Shown: one piece after another, positions 3,593 through 29,659 of the stretch
Layout: each line of letters opens with the position of its first letter
Position numbering within the stretch: position 1 is the first letter of the stretch
Virus record (IMG/VR): IMGVR_UViG_2531839130_000015
DNA length: 38,838 bases
From: a virus
Lineage: Duplodnaviria; Heunggongvirae; Uroviricota; Caudoviricetes
Reading direction: 5' to 3' (one strand)
The notes under the pieces: generated by a model
Seen by the model: the letters and a program-made list of their open reading frames with translations, nothing else
Databases searched by the model: none
Told to the model about the DNA's origin: nothing
Translations under genes and position numbers: made by a program

Positions 3593-6040
3593 TTAACCGT
3601 CATGCATCATGCTGGCACGGGCGCGCGCACGTTTATCCCGCTCGTATTTTTCGAGCGCATCCTGTAACTGGCGGTCGAGCTGAGTCCCCGGCGCAGTACC
3701 GCCCGTCAGACTGATGTGATATTCGTTTTTACTCTGGTCCACATAAGAGCGGCCAGCCGGTGCCGTAACCGGCTGATAAGCCTGATAGCCTGCATAAGAG
3801 CTGGTCGCCGGAATATAACCACCGGTGCCATACGTGGCGGCATGAGTCCTTGCGGCGGTCTGGTCAAGTGTGTCTGACTCTTTGTTGATAACACCGAGTT
3901 TTTCCAGTACCCAGTCAATACCACTGCGCAGTTTGTTGAACGCATTAAGCGGCAGCATCAGCACGTCAGCCAGTGCTTGCCCGAACATGACGCCCGTGTC
4001 ACGGCAACGGTTCAGGGTGTCCTGGGTGGCTTTAACCGGGGCAATCAGGTTTTTAAACCACTGCCACGCGGCCTGTAACTTTTCGCCCAGCCAGTCAAAC
4101 ACCGGTTTAAGTGGCGTGAACAGTTCCCCCACCGGCGCAAATGCTGCTTTCAGCCCTTCAACCACACCGCCAAAGAATGCGCTGACAGGCTCCCAGTATT
4201 TACGGATAAGCAACGCCCCGGCGACAATTGCAGCCACCACGGCCACAACCGGCCAGCTAATCGCCCCGATGGCCGTCATAACAGCACTGCCAACCGTCGT
4301 GAAGATTGCCCCCATTGCGCCTGCTGCCGCGATGATGGCATTGATGCCGGTGATAACCGGCCAGGCTACGAGGCCAATTGCACCGATGATGCCAGTCAGC
4401 GCCAGTGCGCCACCGGCAATGATGCCGATGGTTGACGCCAGTGATTTGTTTTTCTGTATCCAGCCGTCGAGTTTTAACACATACTTTGTGGCCGTCTGCG
4501 TGAGCTTACGCAGTGCGCCTTCCTGCTGGTCAAACAGGTCAGTCCCCACTGCCTCATAAGCGGACTGAAACTCTTTAAAGTCACCGCCTAGGTTGTCCTG
4601 CATGATATTTACCAGCTCGGCAGTCTTCCCGTCTGAGGCTTTAAACGCAGCGGTCAGTTTGTCCAGCTTTCCGGTTGAGGCGGCAGTCATCAGCACGGCG
4701 GCGGCTGAGCTGGCCTCCTCCCCGAAAATAGTTTTCATGTATTCAGCCTGCTGGGCAGTACCGAGCCGGTTTTTCTCAAAACTGGCCTGCATTTCTTTCA
4801 GAATGGTAAATATTGGCCGGGTGTTTCCCTTGCTGTCTGAGGTTTTCACTCCAAGCTCTTTGAGTGCATCCCATGCTTTTCCCGTCGGTGCCTGCAGGCG
4901 GCTTAACACGGCACGGCTTCCCGTCCCTGCCATTGAGCCTGTGATTTTTGCATCATGCAGCGCCCCGACCATTGCGGCGGTTTCTTCAATGCTGACACCG
5001 GCATTTTTTGCCACAGGTGCGGCATAGGTCAGCGCATCGCTCATGCCGTCAAAATCGGCGGCGGTTTTGTTCATCGTCATGGAGAGAACATCCCCGATAT
5101 GAGCGACCTTATCGTTTGAAAGCTGAAAGGCGGATTTCATCCCCATCAGCAGGGCGGCGTTTTCTTCCATCGTGCGGCGGTTCGCCAGCGCCATATTCAG
5201 CGTGACCGGCGTTGCCGCCTGAATGGCATCAACATCCCCACCCGCTTTCGCGATGATTATCTGTGCACCGGCCGCATCATCCGCCGAGGCGGCAGTATTG
5301 TCACCGAGCTGGCGCGCCTGCTTGCGGAGTGCGGCCATTTCGGCGGAGTCTTTTGCCACACCTAGCACGGCCTGCAATTCTGAGTTTTTCTGCGCAAACT
5401 CATAACCGGGCATCAGTAGCTTAACACCGGCCATCGTTCCCGCCGCCGCAATCCCCACACCGGCAGCGCCCACCGAGGCCATATTTCCGGCCAGTTCCTT
5501 TCCGGCCTGATAACGCTGTTTGACTGCGTTAAGTTTTGCCTGTTGCGCACTGACACGCGCCAGCGCGTCACGCTGACGGTTAAGCTGTACGGTGGTTTCA
5601 CTGATACGATTTTTCAGTCCCTGCTCATCATGTGCAAGATTGCGGGTATTAATTCCCACAGCGGCCAGTTCCCGCTGCTGGCGTTTAACGGAATCTGTCA
5701 GGCGGTTATATTTCGCCTGTAAGTCCTCCGCCGCACGCTTTGCGGATTCCAGGACTTTCGCCTGAGCACGGGTCGGACGTTCGGTGTTTTTAAACTGTGT
5801 GGCAAGGGCTTCAGCTTCCTGCCGTGCCTTTTCAAGTGCATGACCAGTCACGGCAAGCTGTGCACTGGTCTTGCGAAATCCCTCAATACGGGATGCGTGA
5901 CCGTTCAGCTCGCGCAGTGATTTTTGTGTTTCCCGGATATCCCCCGACAGCGACTTACTCGCTGTGCGGATGGATTTAAACGGGCGGGATGCCTGGTCAA
6001 CAGCCCTGAGCAATACCTGTAATTTTACATTGTTACTCAT
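3593..6040 (-). CDS. T: Tail tape measure protein T (815 aa)
   Basis: Long Ala/Gly-rich coiled-coil protein with central hydrophobic block, size and position as P2 gpT. Confidence 0.9.
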   Translation of the reverse strand: MSNNVKLQVLLRAVDQASRPFKSIRTASKSLSGDIRETQKSLRELNGHASRIEGFRKTSAQLAVTGHALEKARQEAEALATQFKNTERPTRAQAKVLESAKRAAEDLQAKYNRLTDSVKRQQRELAAVGINTRNLAHDEQGLKNRISETTVQLNRQRDALARVSAQQAKLNAVKQRYQAGKELAGNMASVGAAGVGIAAAGTMAGVKLLMPGYEFAQKNSELQAVLGVAKDSAEMAALRKQARQLGDNTAASADDAAGAQIIIAKAGGDVDAIQAATPVTLNMALANRRTMEENAALLMGMKSAFQLSNDKVAHIGDVLSMTMNKTAADFDGMSDALTYAAPVAKNAGVSIEETAAMVGALHDAKITGSMAGTGSRAVLSRLQAPTGKAWDALKELGVKTSDSKGNTRPIFTILKEMQASFEKNRLGTAQQAEYMKTIFGEEASSAAAVLMTAASTGKLDKLTAAFKASDGKTAELVNIMQDNLGGDFKEFQSAYEAVGTDLFDQQEGALRKLTQTATKYVLKLDGWIQKNKSLASTIGIIAGGALALTGIIGAIGLVAWPVITGINAIIAAAGAMGAIFTTVGSAVMTAIGAISWPVVAVVAAIVAGALLIRKYWEPVSAFFGGVVEGLKAAFAPVGELFTPLKPVFDWLGEKLQAAWQWFKNLIAPVKATQDTLNRCRDTGVMFGQALADVLMLPLNAFNKLRSGIDWVLEKLGVINKESDTLDQTAARTHAATYGTGGYIPATSSYAGYQAYQPVTAPAGRSYVDQSKNEYHISLTGGTAPGTQLDRQLQDALEKYERDKRARARASMMHDG

Positions 6041-6516: not shown

Positions 6517-7035
6517 TCACAGGCCGATATTTCGGCGGTGTTGCTCCAGCCGGTCGACGCCGTTCACCTTCTCAATCATGTTAATGGTGTCGATTTCGAC
6601 CAGCTCCTTACCGTCCATCGTCAGCCGGAAATAGGTGCAGACCACGGAGATTTTCGACTCAGTGTCTTCTCCCTGTTTCCCCTCGCCGGTGTCGATTTCT
6701 TTCTGACGTCCACGCATGACCACCTCGACGGCCACCGTTTCGCCGGTATCGTCGCGCTGGTAAGAGCCAGCAAAACGAATCGGTACGGCATCCACACCGG
6801 TTGCGGCGTAAAGCTCCCAGATAACCGAATCCGGGAAGCCACCGAGCGACCACTCCATTGACAGCGCATCGTCATCAAGGCCGAGGTCTACCGGTGCGCT
6901 GCCGTTCATCCCCGCACCGCGATAGTTTTCGAGTTTACGGGTCAGTTTTGGTAGCGTGACGGACTTTGCAACGCCCTGATAGCTGTAGCCGTTCAGAAAG
7001 ACGTTCATTAACTTGAGTTTGCGCGGCATTGCCAT
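6517..7035 (-). CDS. FII: Tail tube protein FII (172 aa)
   Basis: Size and synteny with P2 gpFII. Confidence 0.9.
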   Translation of the reverse strand: MAMPRKLKLMNVFLNGYSYQGVAKSVTLPKLTRKLENYRGAGMNGSAPVDLGLDDDALSMEWSLGGFPDSVIWELYAATGVDAVPIRFAGSYQRDDTGETVAVEVVMRGRQKEIDTGEGKQGEDTESKISVVCTYFRLTMDGKELVEIDTINMIEKVNGVDRLEQHRRNIGL

Positions 7036-7047
7036 CGGTCAGGCTCC

Positions 7048-8238
7048 TTAATTGCTGTTAACCGAGGTGACCAGATTCGCCAGGTATTTATCGGTAATAC
7101 GCTGGCGCAGGGTCAGGTTTTCAAGAGGAGGCACCGGGGTATAGTCGTAGTCGATATACAGTTTTCCGGCCTTGAGGGTTTCCGCATCGTTGGATTCTTC
7201 GCTGAACCAGCATGAGCCATCCACGATATAGCCGTTTGTTTTCAGCTCACGGAATTTGGCATTGATGCCGTCAACGATGTCGCGAATCAGCGTTGCGGTG
7301 ATGGGCTTGTCCACCGCCCACATGTGCGCCTCAGCCATCGTGTCGGCCAGCACCTGCGCGGTGCGTGTGTAGTTTTCAAAGAGAAACAGCGGGTCATCAG
7401 AGCAGGTACGGTTACCCCAGAAGCGGAAACCGTCGCGGCGAATCAGCGTAGTGACGCCTGACTCGTTAAGCAGGTCAGCATCGGTGCCGGACTCCTGCAA
7501 ATCCCAGAATACAGAGGCGCTGATGCCGGTAACACCGTTCACCCCGACGTTGGACAGCGTTTTATGCCAGCCCTGCTCCTGGTCGATTTTAGCGCGCAGA
7601 CCCAGCGCACGGGCGGTGGCATACGCGGTGGCAGTGGTACTGGTGACCGTATCCCATGCGAGGAAATCCGGCCAGATGACCATCAGCTCACGCTGGCTGA
7701 AATTCTGGCGGTAGGCTTTCACCTCGGAAATGGTCTTACAGCCCCATGCGCTGATATATCCGAAAGCGCGCAGCTTCTGACAGACGGATGCCAGTGCAAC
7801 AGCCACCTCTTTGGTGTCCAGCCCCGGCACACCGAGAATACGCGGTTTAACACCGGTTACCGACTCCGCCGCCAGCAGGGCTTTCAGTCCGGTGTACTGA
7901 CCGTTTTCGTCGGTGGTTCCGATGATATTGGAAACAGTCTGCGCGAGTTTCGTTTCTTCGTCTTCGCCGGTGCCGTCTTCCACACGCACGACAACGGTGA
8001 CCGGTTTTGACTGGTCGGCGATGGCCTGCAACGATGCCGCCAGCGTGCCTTTTTTACCGGCCTTTGCAATTGCGCTCTGCACATTGGTAATCAGCACCGG
8101 TTTATTGAGGGGGAAGGTTTCCGCATCCGCATCGCTGGCTGTGCAGACCATGCCGACAATGGCGGTGGATACGGTGGAAATGACGCGGGTGCCGTCGTTA
8201 ATCTCCAGCACCTGCACGCCGTGATGATAGTCACTCAT
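7048..8238 (-). CDS. FI: Contractile tail sheath protein FI (396 aa)
   Basis: Size and synteny with P2 gpFI; MSDYHHGVQVLEINDGTRVIS start. Confidence 0.9.
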   Translation of the reverse strand: MSDYHHGVQVLEINDGTRVISTVSTAIVGMVCTASDADAETFPLNKPVLITNVQSAIAKAGKKGTLAASLQAIADQSKPVTVVVRVEDGTGEDEETKLAQTVSNIIGTTDENGQYTGLKALLAAESVTGVKPRILGVPGLDTKEVAVALASVCQKLRAFGYISAWGCKTISEVKAYRQNFSQRELMVIWPDFLAWDTVTSTTATAYATARALGLRAKIDQEQGWHKTLSNVGVNGVTGISASVFWDLQESGTDADLLNESGVTTLIRRDGFRFWGNRTCSDDPLFLFENYTRTAQVLADTMAEAHMWAVDKPITATLIRDIVDGINAKFRELKTNGYIVDGSCWFSEESNDAETLKAGKLYIDYDYTPVPPLENLTLRQRITDKYLANLVTSVNSN

Positions 8239-8361: not shown

Positions 8362-8661
8362 TGTCCTGATTTGTACTCACTCATTTTCCGCCTGACAATT
8401 TACATAGCCCAAATGCTATCAAATCTGACAGTCTGCTTTGAGCGAGAAACGGACGTTATAGATAGTGTGTTAAGGTTTTCTCTTTAATTGCAATGTCATA
8501 TCCTCAACGACCAAGTAGTGACATTTTTCGTTATTATATGGTATTGTGTTAGAATTAATTTATTGATGCGAAATCATTCAAAGCTTCATTGGTACTTATA
8601 TTTAACTTATAATCTTAATTAAAGAATTTCTTATTTTTAGATATTTTTATGCAAATACTTA

Positions 8662-9414
8662 ATGAAAGGAGGCATAAATTTGGATACTAACAGTCCATTA
8701 ATTGAAGTCGAGCAGAACACTTCAGACATATATATTCCGTTGCAAGCCTGGTTCGAGGGGAGAAAATTCCTTTCACACAGATTTTCGGGCCAAAACTGTA
8801 GTGATAATCCATCAAGTGATTGGGAGGCTTGGTTATCAATACAGGAATGCTGTCCTCTCCATCAGGTCAATAGTCTTAACTGGGTCGGACTGCATGAAGC
8901 CAGGAAAAATACAGATTCATTCTTGGGGAATGTGAAGAGTGAATTTAATGGAAAGCTTCCCATTTTTATTCATGAAAAGGAGAGGGTGATAATCGAAAAA
9001 AAAATCGGCATTCCTCCCAAACCCTCATTACCAATCTATTTAATATCATGCTCTGATATGGATGATACCAATGAACACATTGTTTATGTCGGAAAAACCG
9101 TTAACTCCAAAAGGTTTATTGGCGGTCACTCGGCTGCCTTAAAGTTGCTAGATCCCAAATATAATAATATGAAAAAGAGGATATATAGAGCCACCCCATG
9201 GTTTTATGATGGAAAAGACTATATTTCACTGGATTGGATTAGTCCGACATCATTAGCTATAGAATTACTTGACTTTATAGAGTCTCATCTTATTTACAAT
9301 CTCAAGCCGGAACTCAACACATCGAAGAAAAAAAATGAAGATACACGTTATTCTTTTTATCTTCACATTCAGAACTTTTTATCAACAGGCTTTCTTAATG
9401 ATGAGTTTATTTAA
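8662..9414 (+). CDS. AT-rich cargo protein with a C-terminal GIY-YIG nuclease-like domain and an unknown N-terminal domain (about 244-250 aa)
   Basis: PIYLISCSDMDDTNEHIVYVGKTVNSKRFIGGH fits the GIY...YVG(K/S)(A/T)...R...H pattern of I-TevI/UvrC-type domains, with a downstream IESHLIYN...N segment consistent with the catalytic Glu/Asn. Strong AAGGAGG Shine-Dalgarno at about 8666..8672 suggests the real start may be TTG at about 8680 rather than ATG at 8662. Occupies the P2 Z/fun position. Confidence 0.6.
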   Translation: MKGGINLDTNSPLIEVEQNTSDIYIPLQAWFEGRKFLSHRFSGQNCSDNPSSDWEAWLSIQECCPLHQVNSLNWVGLHEARKNTDSFLGNVKSEFNGKLPIFIHEKERVIIEKKIGIPPKPSLPIYLISCSDMDDTNEHIVYVGKTVNSKRFIGGHSAALKLLDPKYNNMKKRIYRATPWFYDGKDYISLDWISPTSLAIELLDFIESHLIYNLKPELNTSKKKNEDTRYSFYLHIQNFLSTGFLNDEFI

Positions 9415-9440: not shown

Positions 9441-9464
9441 ATTAAACTACGTCCGCTCCTGGCA
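9441..9464. repeat. Palindromic hairpin GTCCGCT-N10-AGCGGAC, copy 1 of a three-member family
   Basis: Read directly from sequence: gtccgctcctggcaagcagcggac. Confidence 0.6.
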
Positions 9465-9484
9465 AGCAGCGGACATTGCTGGCT

Positions 9485-9506
9485 GAGTTGAGGGTCCGCT
9501 GTGAGC
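9485..9506. repeat. Palindromic hairpin TCCGCT-N10-AGCGGA, copy 2
   Basis: Read directly from sequence: tccgctgtgagcgaggagcgga, 20 nt after copy 1. Confidence 0.6.
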
Positions 9507-9789
9507 GAGGAGCGGAAGTTCAAAATTTTTCATAACGACTGATGAGAACAACACTAATTTTCGAACTTACTGGTACAAAAAATTTCCATAATCTTATAAA
9601 AAGTGGGGGAGTCAGTATGGTTCAATATTTGAAATACTACTTGTTTATGTTGAGAAAATTTTAAGCTTGACCTGGTTACCAGATTACAGCCGATCAACAC
9701 CTAGACATCGAAACTTAGAGGTACCTCTGCTTTCAGGCATACTTAGAGGTCTATGTCTAAACCACCCGCTATGCAGGTGGTTGATTTAC

Positions 9790-11325
9790 CTAATTCGGCC
9801 TTGCTTGAATAGCAGACTCTATAGCTGCTCGGAATTCCGGGGCATCAGTTCTTAATCGATAATCATCAAGGGTATTGAATATTTCTAGAAGTTCTCTACG
9901 ATAATGCAGCGGTGCTGAATTACCTTCGCCTCTAGTGGTGAAAATTAATAATGAGTCAGCGACGTCTTTTAATTTTTTATTCCTTTTCAACCTAATATAA
10001 CAAGATACAACTATATCAAGAATATGCTTTCTAGATTTCAAGGTGAGTTTATTATTAGGCATAACCAACTGCAGCATAGCACCAAGTAATTTGGTAGCCT
10101 CTTTTGAAATATAATGAAGATCGAAATTATCTATTTCTTTATTTTCTTGAGGAATCTCCTTTTCATCTATCCATTCGCATTGTTCTGCCCAATCTGTAGC
10201 GACGCTAAATAAATGACAGAGAAGGAAGTGAAAAGGTGTTTCCCATTCACCACTATATTCATCTGATTGCCTATTCATATTCTTTATAATTTTCCTTGCG
10301 AAATATGAATAGTAATGCAACCATAAATGATCCTGAAGACCCTGGTGAATACCTTCATGAACCATAATTTCAAACAGCGTGACACCTGAGTAAATAGGAC
10401 ATTTATATTTTGAAGCATCGTAATAGGAACCTAAAGACTTATTAAGTGCAGCAATAATTTTTTCATCTTCATCTAACCTCCAGTAGAGATAGTCACCGAT
10501 ATCACGGTATATTGCTAAATCAGCTGCAAACTTAGCATTGGAAAAGAAAAAATGTAATATACGGTTGTTTTTTGGAATCAATAAACGATGTCCTCGACTA
10601 ACGTTAAGATTATTTTTAAGCTCAACATATAGACGACTGTTAGGTGAACCAAGTAATGCACTGATAAAATTAGAAGTAAAGTCAGAACGAACTATTGGCT
10701 CGATCTTGATTAACTCAAGGCAGAGGGATGGGTGCGCAAGTGCAAAGTGATTGGTAAGTTCAGGTGATGAGACAATATTTAACAATGCTTCATGTGCATG
10801 TTCAGCAGCTGTCTCGCGATTAGAGATGCGGAGATTGTTAGCTATCTTATCACAAAGTCGATTCTTCACAGGTCTATCAATTATTGATATTAATTTTTCT
10901 AGTTGAGGTGCCAACAATTGTGCCAGATCGTCGTATCGTTTAGTAAGGTGCAAATTTTCCACTAACTCTAGAAATATCCCTGTTCTTCCAATTGAGAGTT
11001 TAGGGTTTTTTAAGCGAAATGAAATGTAAATAGCAACTGCGAGTGATATCAGGTATACGGCACTTGAACTATCTAATCCCCATTTCCAGGGGCCAAAGCT
11101 AAAATATAAGTCTAGTGATTTTAAAGCCGGTGCAAACACCAAATAATTGCTTAGTAAGAATGCAAACCCAACAATTACCCAATCCCACCACGCTAGGCAG
11201 AACCTTAAACGTAGTCGAGCGTTTGGCGTAATAAGGGCCCATACAGCAGCAATAACGCCCAATATGGTAAGTAGACTTGATGTATCAATTTTGGTTGGCG
11301 GTGTCATAATTTCTCTTGTAATCAT
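9790..11325 (-). CDS. AT-rich cargo membrane protein (511 aa): about three N-terminal TM helices plus a large soluble domain with an HExxHxxxxxH motif; function unknown
   Basis: Hydrophobic segments LLTILGVIAAVWALI, WVIVGFAFLLSNYLVFAPAL, AVYLISLAVAIYISF; motif VHEGIHQGLQDH resembles zinc-metallopeptidase HExxH/metzincin spacing; no P2 backbone gene of this kind recalled; convergent with the upstream GIY-YIG gene. Confidence 0.6.
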   Translation of the reverse strand: MITREIMTPPTKIDTSSLLTILGVIAAVWALITPNARLRLRFCLAWWDWVIVGFAFLLSNYLVFAPALKSLDLYFSFGPWKWGLDSSSAVYLISLAVAIYISFRLKNPKLSIGRTGIFLELVENLHLTKRYDDLAQLLAPQLEKLISIIDRPVKNRLCDKIANNLRISNRETAAEHAHEALLNIVSSPELTNHFALAHPSLCLELIKIEPIVRSDFTSNFISALLGSPNSRLYVELKNNLNVSRGHRLLIPKNNRILHFFFSNAKFAADLAIYRDIGDYLYWRLDEDEKIIAALNKSLGSYYDASKYKCPIYSGVTLFEIMVHEGIHQGLQDHLWLHYYSYFARKIIKNMNRQSDEYSGEWETPFHFLLCHLFSVATDWAEQCEWIDEKEIPQENKEIDNFDLHYISKEATKLLGAMLQLVMPNNKLTLKSRKHILDIVVSCYIRLKRNKKLKDVADSLLIFTTRGEGNSAPLHYRRELLEIFNTLDDYRLRTDAPEFRAAIESAIQARPN

Positions 11326-11596
11326 TGTTTGATGTACATCGGAATGGTTTCAAATGATAAGGCTCTGTGTATGATAAATCAGAACGTTATGCACGTTTAA
11401 GAATACCCTCAAAATGGCACATTTTAATCTAAAAATGGCATTAAATGGACACTACTTGTCCACACAAGTTTTTTTCAGTCGGCTTTTCCCGACTAACGTT
11501 TGGGGTGTCCTATTGAAACTACGCTCCTTATAAAAGCAATACTGTAGCTGTATGTTTATCAAAGGGGTTGTGCTAACCAAATTACTGAAGCCTAAG

Positions 11597-11620
11597 GTCC
11601 GCTCTTGGCACAGAGCGGAC
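11597..11620. repeat. Palindromic hairpin GTCCGCTCT-N6-AGAGCGGAC, copy 3
   Basis: gtccgctcttggcacagagcggac between the cargo membrane gene and tail gene G; shares the GTCCGCT/AGCGGAC stem with copies 1 and 2. Confidence 0.6.
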
Positions 11621-11681
11621 TGTCAGATCAGGCTTTACTCTGTGCCATAGATATGTAAGCTCACACCAGAGCTCATACAAC

Positions 11682-12209
11682 TTATTGTGGCATTTTCGGC
11701 CATTCGGGATTTGCAGGATCCACACGGCTGACCAGAACACTGTAGCGTTCCCATGCTTCCAGTCGGCTATGCTCCTCATCTGTTGCCATGTTCAGCCTGA
11801 CAGCGCGCTCCAGTGGCTGAATAACGCTTTCCGCTTCGGAAAGTAACGCGGCCTTTTGTGATTCTGTCTGTTGTTGCTGTTCGTCTGCCGTATAAATCCG
11901 CTTAATCACGGCACCATCCTTAAACATCCATTTACCTGAGTCATCAGCACGTCGGTTGGCGGTAATATCAGGAACCTCGACAACGCTAAAACCTTCAGGG
12001 TTAAGCGTTGAAGCATCTCTGGTGATGCCGACAATTATATTATTCTCGTCGTAAACAATCTTTATCGTGTCTTCCTGAAAATTACTTACTTCCTCATACC
12101 AGTTTTTTCCGTCTTCGGACCATAACCAGATAACATCAAAATTTTTTGTCAGTTGATATTGAGCAACAGTTTTTGGATTACCCGCAGTAATATTTTTTAA
12201 ATGCTGCAT
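11682..12209 (-). CDS. G: Tail fibre assembly chaperone G (175 aa)
   Basis: MQHLKNI...[29 protein letters not shown] matches recalled P2 gpG. Confidence 0.9.
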
Positions 12210-12212
12210 AAA

Positions 12213-14435
12213 TTACACCTGTGCGACGTTATACCATGTGCCATTGATGTATTTTTGTATCGGTCTGAATACTGCGGGGTCATCACCATCGACTTCACCG
12301 ACAATACCAAGCCCTGTAATTACGTGCCCTGCTTTCTCATACATAACCCCTTTCTGCATAGTCTGAACAACACGAGTGCCCAGGCGAATATCCCGGACAT
12401 AGCGAGAATCTGATTCAGCTTTGGTGTATGCACCAACATCTCCCGCTGATGGTTTTCGTGTTGTGGTATAGAAATCAGACCAGCCAGATTCAAAACCATA
12501 ACCATCACGGGCTGACCTGTAAGATATACCGCCATTTTTATAATTCACACGAAACTGTACAGCCGGGCAGCTACCAGCATTTATATTAAAGTGAAGAATT
12601 AATGCAGATGCTCCCCCAATCAGAGCGTTGTATGCGCCACTGTCCCAATTCCATCCAACGGCTGTATCACCATTAACCGTATTACCTGTCTGCCGAAGTG
12701 CAAATGCACCGACATTTCTGGCATTAAGGGTAATATCTCCAGAACCATCAAAGGCAACACCTGCTATTTTCCTCGGTGTTTCGAGTTTTGAGGCTGTTGC
12801 AGCATTTCCTGAAAGGCTGGAAATAAATGGATGTGAACAGTAATAACCACGTCCATTTTTAAAATCCAGAATAGCCTGTACGTTCGTGCTTTCTGTAGCG
12901 GGATTAGTTGCCCCCCACTTATATGTCGTCTGACCGACGACATAATCCTCTGTCGGAACAATAACCGTTAGCCCTTCCTCTGCAAGAATTTGTACTGGGA
13001 AAGCTCTGGCTTCAACATAAAAAACACTACATACATCATCATCTTTCAGGCTTGTAACAATGGAATGGATTGAACGCTCATTAGTCTGATACGTCCAGAA
13101 ATAACCTGCCGCATATGAACCACGATCGGTCCAGCCTCCGGGCATAACCATGCCATTAAACTCGCAGTTATTCATTACATAATCGCCGTTATAACAACCA
13201 GTTGAAATAACGACGCGGGATGCCATTTCTCCTGAAAGGCTGGCAGCACGGCGAAAGATAACGGGATACCACTTCCCGGCAACGACATTTGCAGGGGCTG
13301 CAAACGAATACTTTCGCATTCCCTTTTTCTTATCCACTTCACCTTTGCTGTAAACATTAATGTTACTCAGGAAGCGTCCTTTATCAGGAATATCCGCACC
13401 GTTCTGATCTTTCTGAAGACGTTTTTCAGCATTGTCATAGGCAGACTTCACCGCTTTTGGTGTTGCAGCCAGCGTTTCAGAATCACTGTTGGTGGCGCTA
13501 CTGAGCTGGACAAGACCTTTTCGCGCTGTGGTGGCATCCTGTGCAGTGTATTTCCCGTTAGCAAGGTCATACGCTGTCTTAACCGCCTTTGGCGTTGCCG
13601 CAAGCGTTTCAGAATCGCTGTTGGTGGCGCTACTGAGCTGGACAAGGCCTTTTCGCGCGGTGGTGGCGTCCTGTGCAGTGTATTTCCCGTTAGCAAGGTC
13701 ATATGCTGCTTTTACCGCTTTTGGTGTTGCGGCGAGCGTTTCAGACGTGCTGTTGGTGGCACTACTGAGCTGGACAAGGCCTTTTCGCGCTGTGGTGGCG
13801 TCCTGTGCAGTGTATTTCCCGTTAGCAAGGTCATATGCTGCTTTTACCGCTTTTGGTGTTGCGGCGAGTGTTTCAGACGTGCTGTTGGTCGCACTGCTTA
13901 ACTGAGTAAAACCTTTGGCGGTCAGCGAGGCGTCCGGGTGACGTCGTGACTGTTCATGTTCTGCAATTTTGTCATCAACGTAATCCTGCGTTGCCATCAC
14001 CGTTGTGGTGTCAATGGTCAGCGCCACTGAGGCCACACTGCTGACGATGATGACCATGCGGCAGGTCTGCGAACGCCCTGAGCCTTCGGCAAGAGCTGGC
14101 TTATAACTTTCAGCCATGTTCGCCACGGCAATTAACGTTCCAGCATCATCGTACAGGCCAAGCTCACGCATCCAGAAACCGCCCACCTCCGGCGGAATAA
14201 CCAGCTCTGCGATAATATAATTACTGTTTCGTTTGTCCTGGCTGATTTTGTTCAGCGCATGTCGCCAGACTTCGTGGATAAGCCCGGTCTGTCCGGCATC
14301 CGGGACAGGCAATTTACCACCGCCATCCCCGACGGCCATCGTGGTAATGTTGACCTTCCGCCCTCCCGGCGCGGTTGCCGCTGCCAGCTTTGCTGCACCA
14401 GCAGTGGTGATAACGGTTCTGAATTTTGTGCTCAT
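12213..14435 (-). CDS. H: Tail fibre protein H (740 aa) with internal tandem repeats and an AT-rich distal receptor-binding region
   Basis: N-terminus P2 gpH-like; four tandem copies of an about 40-aa unit (…LSSATNSTSETLAATPKAVKAAYDLANGKYTAQDATTARKGLVQ…); product longer than recalled P2 gpH (about 669 aa). Confidence 0.85.
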   Translation of the reverse strand: MSTKFRTVITTAGAAKLAAATAPGGRKVNITTMAVGDGGGKLPVPDAGQTGLIHEVWRHALNKISQDKRNSNYIIAELVIPPEVGGFWMRELGLYDDAGTLIAVANMAESYKPALAEGSGRSQTCRMVIIVSSVASVALTIDTTTVMATQDYVDDKIAEHEQSRRHPDASLTAKGFTQLSSATNSTSETLAATPKAVKAAYDLANGKYTAQDATTARKGLVQLSSATNSTSETLAATPKAVKAAYDLANGKYTAQDATTARKGLVQLSSATNSDSETLAATPKAVKTAYDLANGKYTAQDATTARKGLVQLSSATNSDSETLAATPKAVKSAYDNAEKRLQKDQNGADIPDKGRFLSNINVYSKGEVDKKKGMRKYSFAAPANVVAGKWYPVIFRRAASLSGEMASRVVISTGCYNGDYVMNNCEFNGMVMPGGWTDRGSYAAGYFWTYQTNERSIHSIVTSLKDDDVCSVFYVEARAFPVQILAEEGLTVIVPTEDYVVGQTTYKWGATNPATESTNVQAILDFKNGRGYYCSHPFISSLSGNAATASKLETPRKIAGVAFDGSGDITLNARNVGAFALRQTGNTVNGDTAVGWNWDSGAYNALIGGASALILHFNINAGSCPAVQFRVNYKNGGISYRSARDGYGFESGWSDFYTTTRKPSAGDVGAYTKAESDSRYVRDIRLGTRVVQTMQKGVMYEKAGHVITGLGIVGEVDGDDPAVFRPIQKYINGTWYNVAQV
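13430..13925. repeat. Four tandem about 120-bp coding repeats inside tail fibre gene H
   Basis: Near-identical repeated DNA blocks seen directly (e.g. tggtggcgctactgagctggacaag... recurring); corresponds to the repeated peptide unit in H. Confidence 0.8.
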
Positions 14436-16944: not shown

Positions 16945-17688
16945 ATGGATAAATATCAAATCTGGGAAAATCAAAAAGACACCATCGCCCACCAAGAGTA
17001 TTTAAAAATCTCCGACACCAATTTACTTGGACATATGCATATTGCCAATTACGAAGTTGTCCAACATGAATTAAGCAAATTCAACTCCCCTGACATTGTT
17101 TCCCGTCATTCATTTAACAGAGACAAATTTAAAAAAGAACATTTAAACATATCAAGACACCTTTTCAATTATATATCTTCAGCATTATCATTTAGAGATT
17201 CAACGCGCAACCTACTTAAAACAAAAGCATTAAATATTGCCGACATTAAAATCAAATCAGAGGCATTCATCAATCATGAATTCCGAAATAATCCAGTAAT
17301 AAAATTAATGGAGGATTTAAGAAACATCCTGACGCATCAAAACATGATCGCCCCATCAATATCATCATTCATGCACCTCCAAAGAAATATAAACATGCAC
17401 GGCTTTTCATTTAAGATTGAAAGAATCTTAAACAATGACAGAACCACCAAACAAACAAAAGAATATTTAATCTCACTAAAGCAAAAAAACTTATTCATTT
17501 TACCGATAATAGAAGAATACCAATACACGACTCTTAAGTATCAACACTGGCTTTTAGCAAGTATCTACACTGTTCATCAAGATACTTACCAAGAATACTG
17601 GAATGCGAGAAAAAACATCATGAACGAATGGGGAGGAGACACTCAGCTAATACCTAAAGAGAGTGAGCTCACTTATTTAACCAGATAA
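16945..17688 (+). CDS. AT-rich cargo protein (247 aa), unknown function, with an R-N-x3-H (HEPN-like) motif
   Basis: Clean ORF with AAGGAA Shine-Dalgarno; inserted between V and S and divergent from V; motif LRNILTHQN; no confident family assignment. Confidence 0.55.
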   Translation: MDKYQIWENQKDTIAHQEYLKISDTNLLGHMHIANYEVVQHELSKFNSPDIVSRHSFNRDKFKKEHLNISRHLFNYISSALSFRDSTRNLLKTKALNIADIKIKSEAFINHEFRNNPVIKLMEDLRNILTHQNMIAPSISSFMHLQRNINMHGFSFKIERILNNDRTTKQTKEYLISLKQKNLFILPIIEEYQYTTLKYQHWLLASIYTVHQDTYQEYWNARKNIMNEWGGDTQLIPKESELTYLTR

Positions 17689-18538: not shown

Positions 18539-19288
18539 TCACTGATCTCCTTCGGTCAACGGAGATTGTATTTTCCGCATTGATTCTCCTTTAAGTTCGA
18601 TCTTGATACTGCCATGAACCAGTCGATCTAGGATGGCATCCGCATGTGTGGAGTCTCCGATCATTTTGTACCAGTTTTCCACCGGCAACTGGCTCACTAC
18701 GATGATTGAGCCTCGTTGGTACATCAGATCCACTATTTCCAGCAGGTCGCTACGCTGTTCTGATGAGAGAGGTTCCAGCCCCCAGTCATCCAGAAGCAGC
18801 AGATCGCTATTATTCAGCCTGGTCAAAAGTTTGCTGTATCTTCCATCAGCATGCCCCTGATAGCACTGTTCCATCAGCGCTTTAAGGCGATAATAGTAGA
18901 CCTTGTATCCCTGTCGGCAGGCATTATGACCAAGTGCACATGCCAGGAACGTTTTACCGCTGCCGGTGGCCCCGGTCAGTAAAATATTTTGTTTCAGGGT
19001 TAACCAGTTTCCCTGACTGAGTGAACGGATGAGGGCCCTGTCCAGCCCTCTATTGTTACGATAATCCAGCTTTGATAACTCAGCATTAAGTCTGAACCGT
19101 GCATGTTTGATCAGACGCTCTGCCTTCCTGTTTTCACGGCAGGTTAGTTCTTCTGCTGTCAGTAATGACAGGCGTTCTTCGAAGCCCAGCTCCTGGTATG
19201 TGCCCGGTTGAGCAAGTTGCTTTTTAAGCGCATCACGGAAGCCGGTGAGTTTAAGTGCGGTCAGTTGTTCGTAAAGATGATTCATCAT
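18539..19288 (-). CDS. istB: IS21-family helper ATPase IstB (249 aa)
   Basis: Walker A LLTGATGSGKT and Walker B LLLLDDWG, DnaC-like AAA+ architecture typical of IstB. Confidence 0.85.
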   Translation of the reverse strand: MMNHLYEQLTALKLTGFRDALKKQLAQPGTYQELGFEERLSLLTAEELTCRENRKAERLIKHARFRLNAELSKLDYRNNRGLDRALIRSLSQGNWLTLKQNILLTGATGSGKTFLACALGHNACRQGYKVYYYRLKALMEQCYQGHADGRYSKLLTRLNNSDLLLLDDWGLEPLSSEQRSDLLEIVDLMYQRGSIIVVSQLPVENWYKMIGDSTHADAILDRLVHGSIKIELKGESMRKIQSPLTEGDQ

Positions 19289-19299
19289 TGGATCCCGTA

Positions 19300-20841
19300 T
19301 CAGTGGTAATACTCACTGCCGCGTACGTTTTCGTGTTCCATCGTGGATAACAGATCTGGTTTTGGATCCTGAACAGGTTGTTTATCCAGACCTTTTTCCA
19401 GGATCGATTTAATACCTGACAGACGCCATACCTTTGTTTTCAGAGCTCTTGCACATGCTGCATTAAGTCTGGCTTTACTGTATTTTTTATGAAGGTTCAG
19501 GAGTCCAAGGCAGAAGCGATAGCTTTGTTCCGGATGTGGACGAGAGTTCAGTATATGAAGCACATAACTATGAGTTTCACTGCCTATGTGCCCCGCCCAT
19601 TCCAGAAGACGCTCTGGCGTCCAGGTGGCATGCTGTCGATGAGCTTCAGGCATGTGCTCGTTGCGGGTACTGTAGCCATAAGTACGCTTGCGCGGGTGCA
19701 CAGCAACCTCCTGCCCCTGATTGAAGAGTCTTACCAGTTCTCCGGAGATCCATGCTTCCAGTTGCTGGCCTAACAGCGAACATGGAACCGAGTAGTAATG
19801 TTTGTCGATTTCCACGTGGTAATCGGCATGAACTCTGACTTTCTTCACCAGGGTGTAACTGTAACTGGCTTCAGGAAGAGGCTTCAGTGCGGGTTTATCA
19901 AGCTGGATGAAGAGTTCTGCACGTGAATAACCCAACTTCTGCATTATTTTGTTATTCAGTCTTTCCAGCAACTCCCGAATGCGCTGATTAAGCGATGCAA
20001 GGCTGTAGAAGATCTCATGCCTGATTCGGGCCATGATCCAGCGTTCAACAACCTGAACGCCAACTTCAGCTTTGGCTTTATCTTTCGGTTTACGTGGCCG
20101 CGCAGGCAAAACTGCGACATTATAATGCTCAAGCATCTGCTGGTAGGTAGGGTTAACGTCAGGATCATACTTACATGCCCTGGATGTGGCGCTTTTCAGA
20201 TTGTCCGGAACAACAAGTTCAGGAACGCCACCCAACCACTGGAAGCAGCGAACATGACTCATCACCCAGTCTTCAGGCTGCTGAGACCAGGTGGCCTCTG
20301 CCCATGTGTAACTTGATGCCCCGAGAACAGCTACGATGACCTGAGCAGTTCTTATTTCTCCGGTCTCAGGGTCGGTAACGCCAACGGTAGGTCCACAGTA
20401 ATCAACGAAAAGTTTTTCGCCAGCTTTATGTACCTGACGCATTGATGGTGAAGTGGTTTTGAGCCATTCACGGTACATCCGGCAGTAATGGTTATAGCTG
20501 TAAAAACCGCCTGGATTACGCTCACAGTATTCTTCCCAGAGTAGCTGCAGCGTCACGCATTTATTACGCAGTTCCCGGTGTACTGTAGCCCAGTCAGGCA
20601 GAGAGTGCTTCTTCATCTTAACCTGGGTCTGAAGGAACGCATGTTTTAGTTTTGTATCATCCCATCCTGTAGGTAAGGGCCACTGCTTTATGCCAAGTTG
20701 AGCCGCCCGATTAGCATATCTGGATACAACGGAAGGGGAGATTGCAAGACTACGACCAATTTGTCGATGGCTGAGTCCAACACCGTATTTAAGCCTAAGA
20801 ATTTCTTTAAGTTTTCTCATAGAAATTGGAACTGTTGGCAT
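19300..20841 (-). CDS. istA: IS21-family transposase IstA (513 aa)
   Basis: N-terminal HTH plus integrase-like core, directly upstream of istB in the same orientation; family recognised by recall, specific IS name not assigned. Confidence 0.8.
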   Translation of the reverse strand: MPTVPISMRKLKEILRLKYGVGLSHRQIGRSLAISPSVVSRYANRAAQLGIKQWPLPTGWDDTKLKHAFLQTQVKMKKHSLPDWATVHRELRNKCVTLQLLWEEYCERNPGGFYSYNHYCRMYREWLKTTSPSMRQVHKAGEKLFVDYCGPTVGVTDPETGEIRTAQVIVAVLGASSYTWAEATWSQQPEDWVMSHVRCFQWLGGVPELVVPDNLKSATSRACKYDPDVNPTYQQMLEHYNVAVLPARPRKPKDKAKAEVGVQVVERWIMARIRHEIFYSLASLNQRIRELLERLNNKIMQKLGYSRAELFIQLDKPALKPLPEASYSYTLVKKVRVHADYHVEIDKHYYSVPCSLLGQQLEAWISGELVRLFNQGQEVAVHPRKRTYGYSTRNEHMPEAHRQHATWTPERLLEWAGHIGSETHSYVLHILNSRPHPEQSYRFCLGLLNLHKKYSKARLNAACARALKTKVWRLSGIKSILEKGLDKQPVQDPKPDLLSTMEHENVRGSEYYH

Positions 20842-26852: not shown

Positions 26853-28625
26853 ATGACCATCACCACAGACACCACTCTTTTACACGACCCGCGTCGTCAG
26901 GCGGCGCTGCTGTACTGGCAGGGATTTTCCGTGCCGCAGATTGCCGCCATGTTGCAGATGAAACGCCCGACGGTGCAGAGCTGGAAACAGCGCGACGGCT
27001 GGGACAGCGTTGCCCCCATCAGCCGTGTCGAAATGAGTCTGGAAGCGCGGCTGACCCAGCTCATCATCAAACCGCAGAAAACCGGCGGTGATTTCAAGGA
27101 AATTGACCTGCTCGGACGCCAGATTGAACGACTGGCACGGGTAAACCGCTACAGCCAGACCGGCAACGAGGCAGACCTTAATCCGAACGTCGCTAACCGC
27201 AACAAAGGCGGGCGGCGCAAACCGAAAAAGAATTTTTTCAGTGACGAGGCCATCGAAAAGCTGGAGCAGATTTTCTTTGAGCAGTCTTTCGATTATCAGT
27301 TGCACTGGTATCGCGCCGGGCTTGAGCACCGCATCCGCGATATCCTGAAATCCCGCCAGATTGGCGCGACGTTTTATTTTTCCCGCGAGGCGCTGCTGCG
27401 CGCCCTGAAAACCGGTCATAACCAGATTTTTCTGTCGGCCAGTAAAACGCAGGCGTATGTGTTCCGTGAATACATCATCGCCTTTGCCCGTCTGGTTGAT
27501 GTTGACCTGACCGGTGACCCGATTGTCCTGGGCAATAACGGCGCAAAACTGATTTTTCTCGGCACCAACTCCAACACCGCGCAGAGCCATAACGGCGACC
27601 TGTACGTCGACGAGATTTTCTGGATCCCGAATTTTCAGGTGCTGCGTAAGGTGGCATCAGGTATGGCCTCACAGAGTCACCTGCGATCGACCTATTTCTC
27701 CACCCCGTCCACGCTGGCGCACGACGCCTACCCGTTCTGGTCGGGTGAACTGTTCAACCGGGGACGCGCCAGCGCCGCCGAACGCGTGGAAATCGACGTC
27801 AGTCATAACGCCCTTGCCGGTGGGCTTCTCTGTGCGGACGGCCAGTGGCGGCAGATTGTCACCATTGAGGACGCCCTGAAAGGCGGCTGCACGCTGTTCG
27901 ACATTGAGCAGCTCAAACGCGAAAACAGCGCCGACGATTTTAAAAACCTGTTCATGTGTGAATTTGTTGACGACAAGGCGTCGGTGTTCCCGTTCGAGGA
28001 GCTGCAATGCTGTATGGTCGACACGCTGGAAGAATGGGAAGACTATGCGCCGTTTGCCACCAATCCGTTCGGCTCCCGCCCGGTATGGATTGGTTACGAC
28101 CCGTCACACCGTGGCGACAGCGCCGGATGCGTGGTGCTGGCACCGCCGGTGGTGGCCGGTGGCAAATTCAGAATACTTGAGCGTCACCAGTGGAAAGGCA
28201 TGGACTTTGCCACCCAGGCTGAATCCATCCGCAAACTCACCGAAAAATACAACGTCGAATACATCGGTATTGATGCCACCGGCCTCGGTGTCGGCGTGTT
28301 CCAGCTCGTGCGCTCGTTCTATCCCGCCGCGCGCGACATCCGCTACACGCCGGAAATGAAAACCGCAATGGTGCTCAAGGCAAAAGACGTCATCCGCCGT
28401 GGCTGTCTGGAATATGACGTCAGCGCCACCGACATCACCAGCTCGTTTATGGCTATCCGCAAGACCATGACCAGCAGCGGACGCAGCGCCACCTATGAGG
28501 CCAGCCGCAGCGAGGAAGCCAGCCACGCCGACCTCGCCTGGGCGACCATGCACGCCCTGTTAAATGAGCCACTCACCGCCGGTATCAGCACCCCGCTGAC
28601 ATCCACCATTCTGGAGTTTTACTGA
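26853..28625 (+). CDS. P: Terminase ATPase (large) subunit P (590 aa); track ORF starts 10 codons early
   Basis: MTITTDTTLLHDPRRQAALLYWQGFSVPQIAAMLQ matches recalled P2 gpP. Confidence 0.9.
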   Translation: MTITTDTTLLHDPRRQAALLYWQGFSVPQIAAMLQMKRPTVQSWKQRDGWDSVAPISRVEMSLEARLTQLIIKPQKTGGDFKEIDLLGRQIERLARVNRYSQTGNEADLNPNVANRNKGGRRKPKKNFFSDEAIEKLEQIFFEQSFDYQLHWYRAGLEHRIRDILKSRQIGATFYFSREALLRALKTGHNQIFLSASKTQAYVFREYIIAFARLVDVDLTGDPIVLGNNGAKLIFLGTNSNTAQSHNGDLYVDEIFWIPNFQVLRKVASGMASQSHLRSTYFSTPSTLAHDAYPFWSGELFNRGRASAAERVEIDVSHNALAGGLLCADGQWRQIVTIEDALKGGCTLFDIEQLKRENSADDFKNLFMCEFVDDKASVFPFEELQCCMVDTLEEWEDYAPFATNPFGSRPVWIGYDPSHRGDSAGCVVLAPPVVAGGKFRILERHQWKGMDFATQAESIRKLTEKYNVEYIGIDATGLGVGVFQLVRSFYPAARDIRYTPEMKTAMVLKAKDVIRRGCLEYDVSATDITSSFMAIRKTMTSSGRSATYEASRSEEASHADLAWATMHALLNEPLTAGISTPLTSTILEFY

Positions 28626-29659
28626 TGAGCAAGAAAAAAGGGAAAACACCGCAACCTGCGGCAAAAAAAATGACCGCCAGCGCCCCGAAAATGGAGGCAT
28701 TCACCTTTGGTGAGCCGGTGCCGGTACTCGACCGCCGTGACATTCTGGATTACGTCGAGTGCATCAGTAACGGCAGATGGTATGAGCCACCGGTCAGCTT
28801 TACCGGTCTGGCAAAAAGCCTGCGTGCTGCCGTGCATCACAGCTCACCGATTTACGTCAAACGTAATATTCTGGCCTCAACGTTTATCCCGCACCCGTGG
28901 CTTTCCCAGCAGGATTTCAGCCGTTTTGTGCTGGATTTTCTGGTGTTCGGTAATGCGTTTCTGGAAAAGCGTTACAGCACCACCGGTAAGGTAATCAGAC
29001 TGGAAACCTCACCGGCCAAATATACCCGTCGTGGCGTGGAGGAGGATGTTTACTGGTGGGTGCCGTCCTTCAACGAGCCGACAGCCTTCGCGCCCGGCTC
29101 CGTGTTTCACCTGCTGGAGCCCGATATTAATCAGGAGCTGTACGGCCTGCCGGAATATCTCAGCGCCCTTAACTCTGCCTGGCTGAATGAGTCGGCCACG
29201 CTGTTCCGCCGCAAGTATTACGAAAACGGCGCACATGCCGGATACATCATGTACGTTACCGATGCCGTGCAGGATCGCAACGATATCGAAATGCTTCGCG
29301 AAAACATGGTTAAGTCGAAAGGCCGCAATAACTTTAAAAATCTGTTTCTCTATGCCCCGCAGGGGAAAGCCGACGGCATTAAAATTATCCCCCTCAGTGA
29401 AGTGGCAACGAAGGACGATTTTTTTAATATCAAAAAAGCCAGCGCCGCTGACCTGCTGGACGCGCACCGTATCCCCTTTCAGTTGATGGGCGGCAAGCCG
29501 GAGAACGTCGGGTCACTGGGAGATATTGAGAAAGTGGCAAAGGTCTTTGTCCGCAATGAGCTTATCCCGTTACAGGACAGAATTCGGGAAATAAACGGCT
29601 GGCTCGGTCAGGAGGTCATCCGCTTTAAAAACTACTCACTGGACACTGACAACGGCTGA
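28625..29659 (+). CDS. Q: Portal protein Q (344 aa)
   Basis: Size and synteny with P2 gpQ; start overlaps P stop. Confidence 0.9.
   Translation: MSKKKGKTPQPAAKKMTASAPKMEAFTFGEPVPVLDRRDILDYVECISNGRWYEPPVSFTGLAKSLRAAVHHSSPIYVKRNILASTFIPHPWLSQQDFSRFVLDFLVFGNAFLEKRYSTTGKVIRLETSPAKYTRRGVEEDVYWWVPSFNEPTAFAPGSVFHLLEPDINQELYGLPEYLSALNSAWLNESATLFRRKYYENGAHAGYIMYVTDAVQDRNDIEMLRENMVKSKGRNNFKNLFLYAPQGKADGIKIIPLSEVATKDDFFNIKKASAADLLDAHRIPFQLMGGKPENVGSLGDIEKVAKVFVRNELIPLQDRIREINGWLGQEVIRFKNYSLDTDNG

Follow-up and report, generated by a model that had tools for sequence, protein, structure and literature searches.

A candidate defence nuclease with affinity to T4 endonuclease II in the Z/fun slot of a P2-like Escherichia coli prophage

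Introduction

What does a solitary gene do that sits in the cargo slot of a prophage and runs against the direction of the tail genes around it? The virus record IMGVR_UViG_2531839130_000015 (38,838 nucleotides; the whole stretch is termed the window here) is a P2-like prophage of Escherichia coli, and this stretch is identical to strain 504838 (NZ_CP025856). At 8680–9414 on the plus strand it carries a gene for a protein of 244 amino acids (WP_001471804.1), which PGAP annotates in NZ_CP025856 as a hypothetical protein. A sequence-only reading of this DNA had proposed a GIY-YIG nuclease in a prophage accessory locus, and had considered a defence effector plausible.

The product appears to be a soluble DNA endonuclease that stands alone and belongs to a family not characterised before; its nuclease domain has its closest characterised relative in endonuclease II (EndoII, DenA) of phage T4. 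Genomic context supports the earlier suggestion of a defence effector, and a defence role in the broad sense is probable. More specifically, we hypothesize that the gene is expressed by the lysogen as a single-gene defence nuclease which is held inactive until an infection cue arrives; to this more detailed reading, in which nuclease activity, defence function and triggered autoinhibition are all inferred, we assign a probability of about 0.4. The domain call itself is not new, as some homologue records are already automatically named 'GIY-YIG nuclease family protein'. New are the family as a defence candidate, its affinity to EndoII, and an acidic N-terminal region of unknown fold.

The gene and its position in the prophage

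The open reading frame (ORF) exists at 8662–9414 (+), and codes for 250 amino acids from an ATG at 8662 or for 244 amino acids from a TTG at 8680, ending with a TAA stop codon at 9412–9414. A TTG start near 8680 had been suggested before, and three observations agree with it: a Shine-Dalgarno sequence AAGGAGG is read directly at 8666–8672 (+), 7 nucleotides before the TTG; RefSeq/PGAP annotates the same start; and in the alignment of the E. coli and Proteus vulgaris DNA an in-frame TAG separates the conserved upstream ATG from the TTG in the Proteus ortholog. The ATG at 8662 was rejected as a start because of the latter two. Each motif quoted in the sequence-only reading is present, as verified codon by codon, whereas the N-terminal part, given there as about 130 amino acids, comprises about 112 when counted from the TTG.

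Upstream of the gene lies an AT-rich region (8459–8679, +), and about 200 bp of sequence are conserved ahead of the Proteus ortholog. Consensus matching alone yields candidate sigma-70 promoters in this region, such as GTGACA-18-TATTGT at 8518–8547 and TATAAT at 8608–8613. Within the coding sequence, differences to Proteus at codon positions 1, 2 and 3 number 14, 15 and 67, with a dN/dS of 0.10. The nuclease gene is real and under strong purifying selection. In the Proteus vulgaris sequence (CP033736, approximately 7700–7800), a perfect heptanucleotide tandem repeat (TAGATTG)n stands directly upstream of the conserved upstream region.

The accessory locus that had been proposed turns out to be the Z/fun slot of P2. 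To its left, on the minus strand, are the genes of the tail tape-measure protein, E/E', the tail tube FII (6517–7035) and the sheath FI (7048–8238); to its right, likewise on the minus strand, are tail-fibre assembly gene G (11682–12209) and fibre gene H (12213–14435). The 3.4 kb interval between FI and G is the position that fun(Z) holds in phage P2, a slot of lysogenic conversion, and like fun(Z) there, the nuclease gene is oriented antisense to the late tail operons. Two convergent ORFs fill the slot, the nuclease gene at 8662/8680–9414 (+) and an ORF of 505/511 amino acids at 9790–11307/11325 (−). Similarity to P2-like phages is restricted to the flanks and covers 8–9% of a query spanning the slot. 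The GC content within the slot is 0.29–0.40, compared to about 0.55 in the backbone, and drops to about 0.30–0.38 directly after a palindromic repeat (R1, see below).

The fun locus has been described as a second defence-enriched locus of P2-like phages, with three validated systems (Vassallo 2022; PMC9519451). Another analysis (Rousset 2022; PMC9122126) was confined to the other hotspot of P2, which lies between gpA and gpQ.

The GIY-YIG domain

The nuclease domain is a divergent GIY-YIG domain of the T4 EndoII type, located at amino acids 113–215 (9016–9324, +). The motifs, in the numbering of the 244-residue protein, are P118-I119-Y120 (9031–9039), V135-Y136-V137-G138-K139-T140, K144-R145, G148-G149-H150, I200-E201-S202-H203-L204-I205-Y206-N207, and N213. 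Candidate catalytic residues are Y120 (9037–9039), Y136 (9085–9087), R145 (9112–9114), H150 (9127–9129), E201 (9280–9282) and N213 (9316–9318). In an alignment of 53 sequences reaching down to 20–30% identity, invariance is restricted to the columns Y136, G138, R145, H150, L156, E201, L204 and N213; Y120, F146, G149, K166 and P210 are conserved to at least 90%. The catalytic pattern recognised in the sequence-only reading is thereby borne out as a complete, conserved set. Both the GIY and the YIG tyrosines are present (Y120, and Y136-x-G138), spaced by 16 residues compared to the usual 10–11 or so (10 in EndoII). The loop between beta1 and beta2 (SDMDDTNEH) is acidic and 6 residues longer than that of EndoII.

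Profile searches gave a divided answer to the check that the sequence-only reading had named. With the single sequence, matches in Pfam stay below threshold: PF01541 (GIY-YIG) at E 0.03 and 15.0 bits (cutoff 22.6) over amino acids 119–155, and PF20815 (GIY_YIG_2) at E 0.09 and 13.1 bits (cutoff 22.4) over amino acids 180–222. These two span complementary halves of one domain, and weak matches recur among relatives (PF01541 in 29 of 35, best 7e-5; PF20815 in 20 of 35, best 2e-4). Comparison of profiles, on the other hand, is significant. By hhalign, the family alignment matches T4 DenA alone at E 9.9e-5, and an alignment of the EndoII family, members of which carry PF01541, with 95% probability and E 3.9e-8 over 106 columns (amino acids 113–234). 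This pairs PIY with VIY, VYVGKT with VYIGKT, R145 with the arginine of LRKR, E201 with EndoII E118 (which carries the mutation in PDB 2WSH), and N213 with the asparagine of PPWN.

Structure prediction, also named as a check, returned a full-length model with a predicted TM score (pTM) of 0.85, displaying a three-stranded sheet flanked by helices, as in the GIY-YIG fold. Foldseek of this model against PDB gave nothing with E below 0.09, and the family profile matched none of the PDB sequences at E≤10. The sole PHROG is phrog_16890, of unknown function. Conservation of the catalytic residues, profile homology and modest similarity of fold together support the GIY-YIG assignment.

N-terminal region and C-terminal tail

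Amino acids 1–112 (8680–9015, +) form the N-terminal region. Residues 1–15, a disordered stretch, are confined to the enterobacterial proteins, while residues from about 16 to 112 are mostly helical, acidic and specific to the family, with one long strand at 49–59. This strand is modelled confidently in the full-length protein only, and disappears from a model of the region by itself. Along with the pTM of 0.85, this suggests that the N-terminal region is packed against the catalytic core and does not form an autonomous domain. The mean net charge among 35 members is −7 over about 100 residues, and the beta1-beta2 loop adds a mean of −2.6. Such acidity argues against a role in DNA specificity, and would fit a regulatory, oligomerisation or protein-sensing role.

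That no known domain is recognisable here, as had been noted from the sequence, is confirmed by Pfam, NCBIfam, PADLOC and PDB, where neither sequence nor fold of this region found a match. Among relatives with a longer N-terminus, the only recognisable Pfam domain is a leucine-rich repeat (LRR) in the distant cluster P0214, carried on the same nuclease domain. In another E. coli genome, a protein of 126 amino acids (P0317) is 84% identical to the N-terminal region only, and probably is a truncated remnant of the nuclease gene.

The C-terminal tail (amino acids 216–244; 9325–9411, +) is likewise specific to the family. It consists of a basic KKK patch, a conserved 'HIQN' strand and a 'FLND' end. 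I230, N232 and L239 are nearly invariant, and the model places strands at 228–232 and 241–242.

Family distribution and genomic neighbourhoods

We find 81 homologues, typically of about 226 amino acids and about 50% identical across 93% of the length, in Gamma-, Beta- and Alphaproteobacteria, Desulfovibrionia and Bacillales. An exhaustive profile search brings the family to 239 clusters at 50% identity. The literature yielded no paper devoted to it, and protein and accession are absent from Rousset 2022 and its supplements. A tblastn search of 50,697 phage records gave no match, and that of plasmids returned only one Alkalihalophilus match and a relative of 210 amino acids (WP_100723117.1), which lies beside repB on Klebsiella IncFIB plasmids of about 110 kb (NZ_CP036373; L022, 3290–3919).

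Genomic neighbourhoods were sampled in 12 independent contexts including E. coli, a small set read without a formal enrichment statistic. The gene is solitary in all of them, its neighbours differ each time, and no partner gene is conserved across the 12. The company of a hotspot or of other defence genes, which is a general criterion for a defence system, is displayed by the P2 fun slot and by 6 of the 11 further contexts, where recognised defence genes lie within 8 kb and often adjacent. In Proteus the gene resides in the cargo region of a lambdoid prophage, beside SIR2 and a STAND NTPase. In Halodesulfovibrio it lies on an integrative and conjugative element (ICE), directly beside Thoeris (ThsA 6e-194, ThsB 4e-69), and in an alphaproteobacterium directly beside Gabija (GajA 4e-276, GajB 2e-238), 117 nucleotides downstream of gajB on a mobilisable island with ParDE. 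Acinetobacter carries it in a Tn7-like transposon, where the cargo places it directly next to Shedu (SduA 1.5e-124) or DUF3800; Microbulbifer on an integrase island that also contains a PIN protein and, about 2.5 kb away, a restriction-modification system of type I; and in Psychrobacillus it is convergent with an OLD-family nuclease, near DndB. PADLOC confirms ThsA, ThsB, GajA, GajB, SduA and SIR2 as neighbours, with E-values from 1e-15 to 4e-276. The Peribacillus context is a mobile element with an Mrr_cat protein that weakly matches a PADLOC candidate model.

These neighbourhoods also bear on two explanations other than defence. The gene is found nearly always on mobile elements, i.e. prophages, the ICE, the Tn7-like transposon, the mobilisable island by ParDE and the Klebsiella plasmids, which would suit a toxin or competition factor serving the element, be it as an addiction or exclusion nuclease acting against rival plasmids, satellites or related prophages, or as a stabilisation module. 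However, no conserved antitoxin, immunity gene or small ORF stands alongside (the 117 nucleotides to gajB in the alphaproteobacterial locus included), and the neighbours are mostly anti-phage systems and not toxin-antitoxin modules. We regard this explanation as improbable. Still less probable is a non-immune nuclease for DNA transactions of the element itself, such as recombination, repair, or degradation of host DNA in the manner of T4 EndoII. The relation to EndoII would be in keeping with such a role, but the slot is a non-essential, hypervariable cargo site, the gene lies antisense to the late operons, and it is missing from nearly all P2-like prophages: the locus query is matched by 1139 genomes, nearly all through the conserved flanks only, and 6 of them carry the gene. 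Moreover, elements of unrelated types and chromosomes carry this same gene, which speaks against any common element function.

Small GNAT acetyltransferase genes were observed directly adjacent to the nuclease gene, on the same strand, in Pseudomonas (L004, 8888–9217), a betaproteobacterium (L020, 8812–9213) and Psychrobacillus (L024, 7282–7791). As this concerns 3 of 12 contexts, and two of the GNATs share no BLASTP similarity with each other, GNAT was rejected as a component of the system and is left unexplained.

Palindromic repeats and cassette structure

An imperfect palindrome with the core GTCCGCT-N10-AGCGGAC occurs in four copies in the slot (8423–8458, 9449–9477, 9489–9520 and 11593–11628), so that each ORF is bracketed. 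A pattern search of the whole window returned 5 matches, these four and one in the tape-measure gene (4542–4565), compared to 0.15 expected. The first copy, R1 (8423–8458; core GTCTGCT-N10-AACGGAC), is the left boundary of the nuclease cassette, by the pF/FI promoter side of the P2 backbone. The second, R2 (9449–9477; GTCCGCTCCTGGCAAGCAGCGGAC), is its right boundary and is also present behind the Proteus ortholog; it is a possible transcription-terminating hairpin. The copy proximal to G (after gene G) is found in the P2 reference genome too. The palindromes may be recombination or terminator elements that mediate the exchange of cassettes. Nilsson and colleagues reportedly proposed, in 2004, site-specific recombination at the Z/fun locus.

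The convergent neighbour was considered as a partner of the nuclease. Its 505-residue product (WP_032196330; ORF 9790–11307 on the minus strand, 511 residues from 11325) belongs to phrog_13820, of unknown function, and has N-terminal stretches that are hydrophobic by eye. Pfam and PADLOC gave no match for it, and NCBIfam only two at chance level. Many E. coli genomes carry this gene by itself, together with the repeats, in other islands, the homology beginning exactly at the repeat 9489–9520. Its DNA is 74% identical to Klebsiella phage-plasmids of about 110 kb, and relatives occur on Klebsiella phage records of about 110–120 kb; both cargo genes of the slot thus have relatives on large Klebsiella extrachromosomal elements. 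Since the 505-residue gene occurs alone elsewhere, the two genes are independent cassettes. Functional coupling was rejected on account of the convergent orientation, the separate flanking repeats and the solitary occurrence of the 505-residue gene in many genomes. The Z/fun slot is hence built of independent cassettes with a shared palindromic boundary, which bears on how cargo is exchanged in prophage defence hotspots.

A cassette that moves between unrelated prophages (the Proteus ortholog sits in a lambdoid one) may also bring to mind a homing endonuclease of the free-standing GIY-YIG type, spreading through cleavage of empty cognate sites, as many phage GIY-YIG genes home (I-TevI, SegG in T4). 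Several observations contradict this. The architecture is reversed, a Pfam scan detected no NUMOD, IENR or HTH modules, and hhalign displays no relation to I-TevI (E 0.42). The slot hosts many unrelated cargos, the flanks of the gene are unrelated in every genome, and the ends of the cassette are palindromic repeats which also bound the unrelated cassette next to it. Strict conservation of the catalytic residues, together with the dN/dS of 0.10, holds over wide phylogenetic distances. Homing is the least likely of the explanations considered, and very improbable. The sequence-only reading had named a homing context as grounds for giving up its proposal; as the order of domains is reversed and neither DNA-binding modules nor a homing context were found, this ground does not apply.

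Proposed mechanism

No methyltransferase gene lies adjacent to the nuclease gene, neither in the window nor in the 11 other contexts, and the enzyme must therefore spare the DNA of its host in some other way. The preferred reading is that of an autoinhibited defence nuclease. The gene travels as a self-contained cassette with its own AT-rich upstream region, TTG start and terminal hairpin, and in this model the lysogen would express it as a single-gene nuclease directed against phages or other mobile elements. By analogy with the superfamily, Y120, Y136, R145 and H150 would set the scissile phosphate and the attacking water in place and activate them, while E201 (aligned with EndoII E118) and N213 may hold a single divalent metal. 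Host DNA would be spared because the enzyme is held inactive, with the acidic N-terminal region packed on the catalytic core; the acidic beta1-beta2 loop may assist in the inhibition, and an infection cue would lift the block.

Autoinhibition is favoured by the charge pattern, the predicted packing of the N-terminal region on the core, and the precedent of CMoRE/PD-T4-3, a GIY-YIG defence nuclease that is autoinhibited by an acidic loop or lid (PMC12923530). The LRR N-terminus that cluster P0214 has on the same nuclease domain is a further point in favour of a regulatory N-terminal region.

The principal rival, which we consider doubtful, holds that the enzyme is constitutively competent and restricts DNA directly without a methyltransferase, in a type IV-like or structure-dependent fashion, cutting only DNA that bears a mark foreign to the host (hydroxymethylcytosine (hmC), glucosyl-hmC or other hypermodifications) or that takes a phage-specific form. 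The N-terminal region and the C-terminal tail would then provide substrate discrimination or oligomerisation, as in the tetrameric EndoII. Direct restriction is the mode of CMoRE/PD-T4-3, the only mechanistically solved single-gene GIY-YIG defence protein (PMC12923530), and the closest relative, T4 EndoII, distinguishes cytosine DNA (C-DNA) from hmC-DNA. Furthermore, a methyltransferase is not a conserved neighbour in the 12 contexts, and members of the family adjoin other direct-acting nucleases (Gabija, Shedu, OLD). On the other side, the non-catalytic region is acidic and bears no known fold of a modified-base reader (SRA, YTH, PUA-like etc.), the order of domains is opposite to that of CMoRE, the GIYxY motif is absent, and PADLOC gives no PD-T4-3 match.

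A bolder version of the autoinhibited nuclease pictures a sensor and effector in one polypeptide: a novel acidic N-terminal fold would clamp the EndoII-type domain and release it upon a phage protein or a DNA-mimic target, and EndoII and the bacterial and prophage immunity family would be sister lineages exchanged across the divide between phage and host. This version is speculative and in our view unlikely.

Several observations weigh against an autoinhibited defence nuclease. The gene is rare: of 5426 complete E. coli genomes 6 carry it, each time in this arrangement. In 5 of the 12 contexts (Pseudomonas, the betaproteobacterium, Neptuniibacter, Burkholderia and Peribacillus) no recognised defence gene is located within 8 kb. 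The protein matches no PADLOC model at E≤10 and nothing in NCBIfam. When fusions to other effectors were sought with a profile of the N-terminal region alone, only truncated fragments of the same family came back, which lends no support to a portable sensor module. Finally, autoinhibition and sensing are proposed from charge, from a predicted structure and from analogy.

If the gene confers phage resistance, it would define a new single-gene defence family that is compact (about 230 amino acids), phylogenetically wide (at least 239 clusters) and missed by PADLOC. In that case the T4 EndoII branch of GIY-YIG nucleases would also have a counterpart in bacterial immunity, and the protein may serve as a small, tractable model for how nucleases without a methyltransferase spare their host. 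As an experimental target the gene is cheap and good, and the proposal is conceptually unsurprising.

Other features of the prophage

The late-gene region of the prophage contains an IS21-family element, composed of an IstB-like ATPase (18539–19288, −) and a transposase with rve and Mu-transposase C-terminal domains (19300–20841, −). The prophage is possibly defective. A gene for the CyaR/RyeE small RNA (1445–1530, +; Rfam RF00112, 100.7 bits) is located towards the left end of the window, not far from where the tail genes of the prophage end. Fibre protein H (12213–14435, −) includes three to four near-identical tandem repeats of about 43 amino acids, …KGLVQLSSATNS(T/D)SETLAATPKAVK(A/T)AYDLANGKYTAQDATTAR….

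An ORF of 247 amino acids (16945–17688, +) lies antisense to the surrounding tail and baseplate genes, without a match in Pfam or PADLOC; in P2 this position is that of the non-essential orf30. Another ORF, of 440 amino acids (29991–31313, −), is flanked by ORFs of 344 (28625–29659) and 757 (31397–33670) amino acids and likewise found no match in Pfam or PADLOC. The two flanking ORFs are taken to be portal Q and replication protein A, from their size and order; the 440-residue ORF would then fall in the old/tin position, the other known defence hotspot of P2. Adjoining the putative replication ORF is a gene for a PAPS-reductase-domain protein (33667–34674, −; PF01507 5e-35) with PADLOC similarity to SspD, DndC and BrxP, which may be an accessory gene related to DNA modification.

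Comparison with known systems

T4 EndoII (DenA; PDB 2WSH) is the nearest characterised relative of the nuclease domain. EndoII is a GIY-YIG enzyme of about 136 amino acids, made by a lytic phage to degrade host C-DNA, and has neither the acidic N-terminus of about 110 residues nor the HIQN/FLND tail; H150 of the present protein aligns with an arginine in EndoII. A search with the DenA sequence retrieved 86 proteins of about 135–155 amino acids, or shorter fragments, from T4-like phages where named, and none of the present family, which is therefore a sister family of EndoII and not a member of it.

GIY-YIG nucleases with other tasks differ more clearly. R.Eco29kI (PDB 3MX4), of type II, requires an adjacent cognate methyltransferase, which is not a conserved neighbour in the 12 contexts here. 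I-TevI and the Seg proteins share the catalytic superfamily and are phage-borne as well, but their catalytic module is N-terminal and their DNA-binding one C-terminal, the opposite of the order observed here, in a protein that by hhalign shows no similarity beyond the superfamily motifs (E 0.42) and is encoded in a hypervariable slot. Such homing enzymes sit within or next to a conserved target gene of which empty alleles exist. The gene of P2 Fun(Z), which blocks T5, lies between G and FI in the same slot as the nuclease gene, likewise runs antisense to the late operons and is non-essential cargo; Fun(Z) is a protein of 528 amino acids and unrelated in sequence.

CMoRE/PD-T4-3 (PDB 9U75) is similar as a stand-alone protein of about 245 amino acids with a GIY-YIG domain and a non-catalytic module, as cargo of E. 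coli mobile elements, and in having an acidic element near the catalytic domain, which in CMoRE has been shown to be autoinhibitory. CMoRE/PD-T4-3 is a type IV restriction enzyme whose GIYxY-YIG domain is N-terminal and whose C-terminal one senses modification (PMC12923530), whereas the present protein has its catalytic domain at the C-terminus and reads PIYLIS in the motif, without the second tyrosine, and PADLOC finds no match. Uzume and PD-Lambda-1 are of the same general kind, being single genes with a predicted GIY-YIG nuclease (bioRxiv 10.1101/2024.10.26.620412). The nuclease described here differs from both in matching no PADLOC model at E≤10. PADLOC-DB v2 presumably includes Uzume and PD-Lambda-1. 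Although it falls outside the families of PD-T4-3/CMoRE, PD-Lambda-1 and Uzume, the protein is of the same kind as these single-gene GIY-YIG defence proteins.

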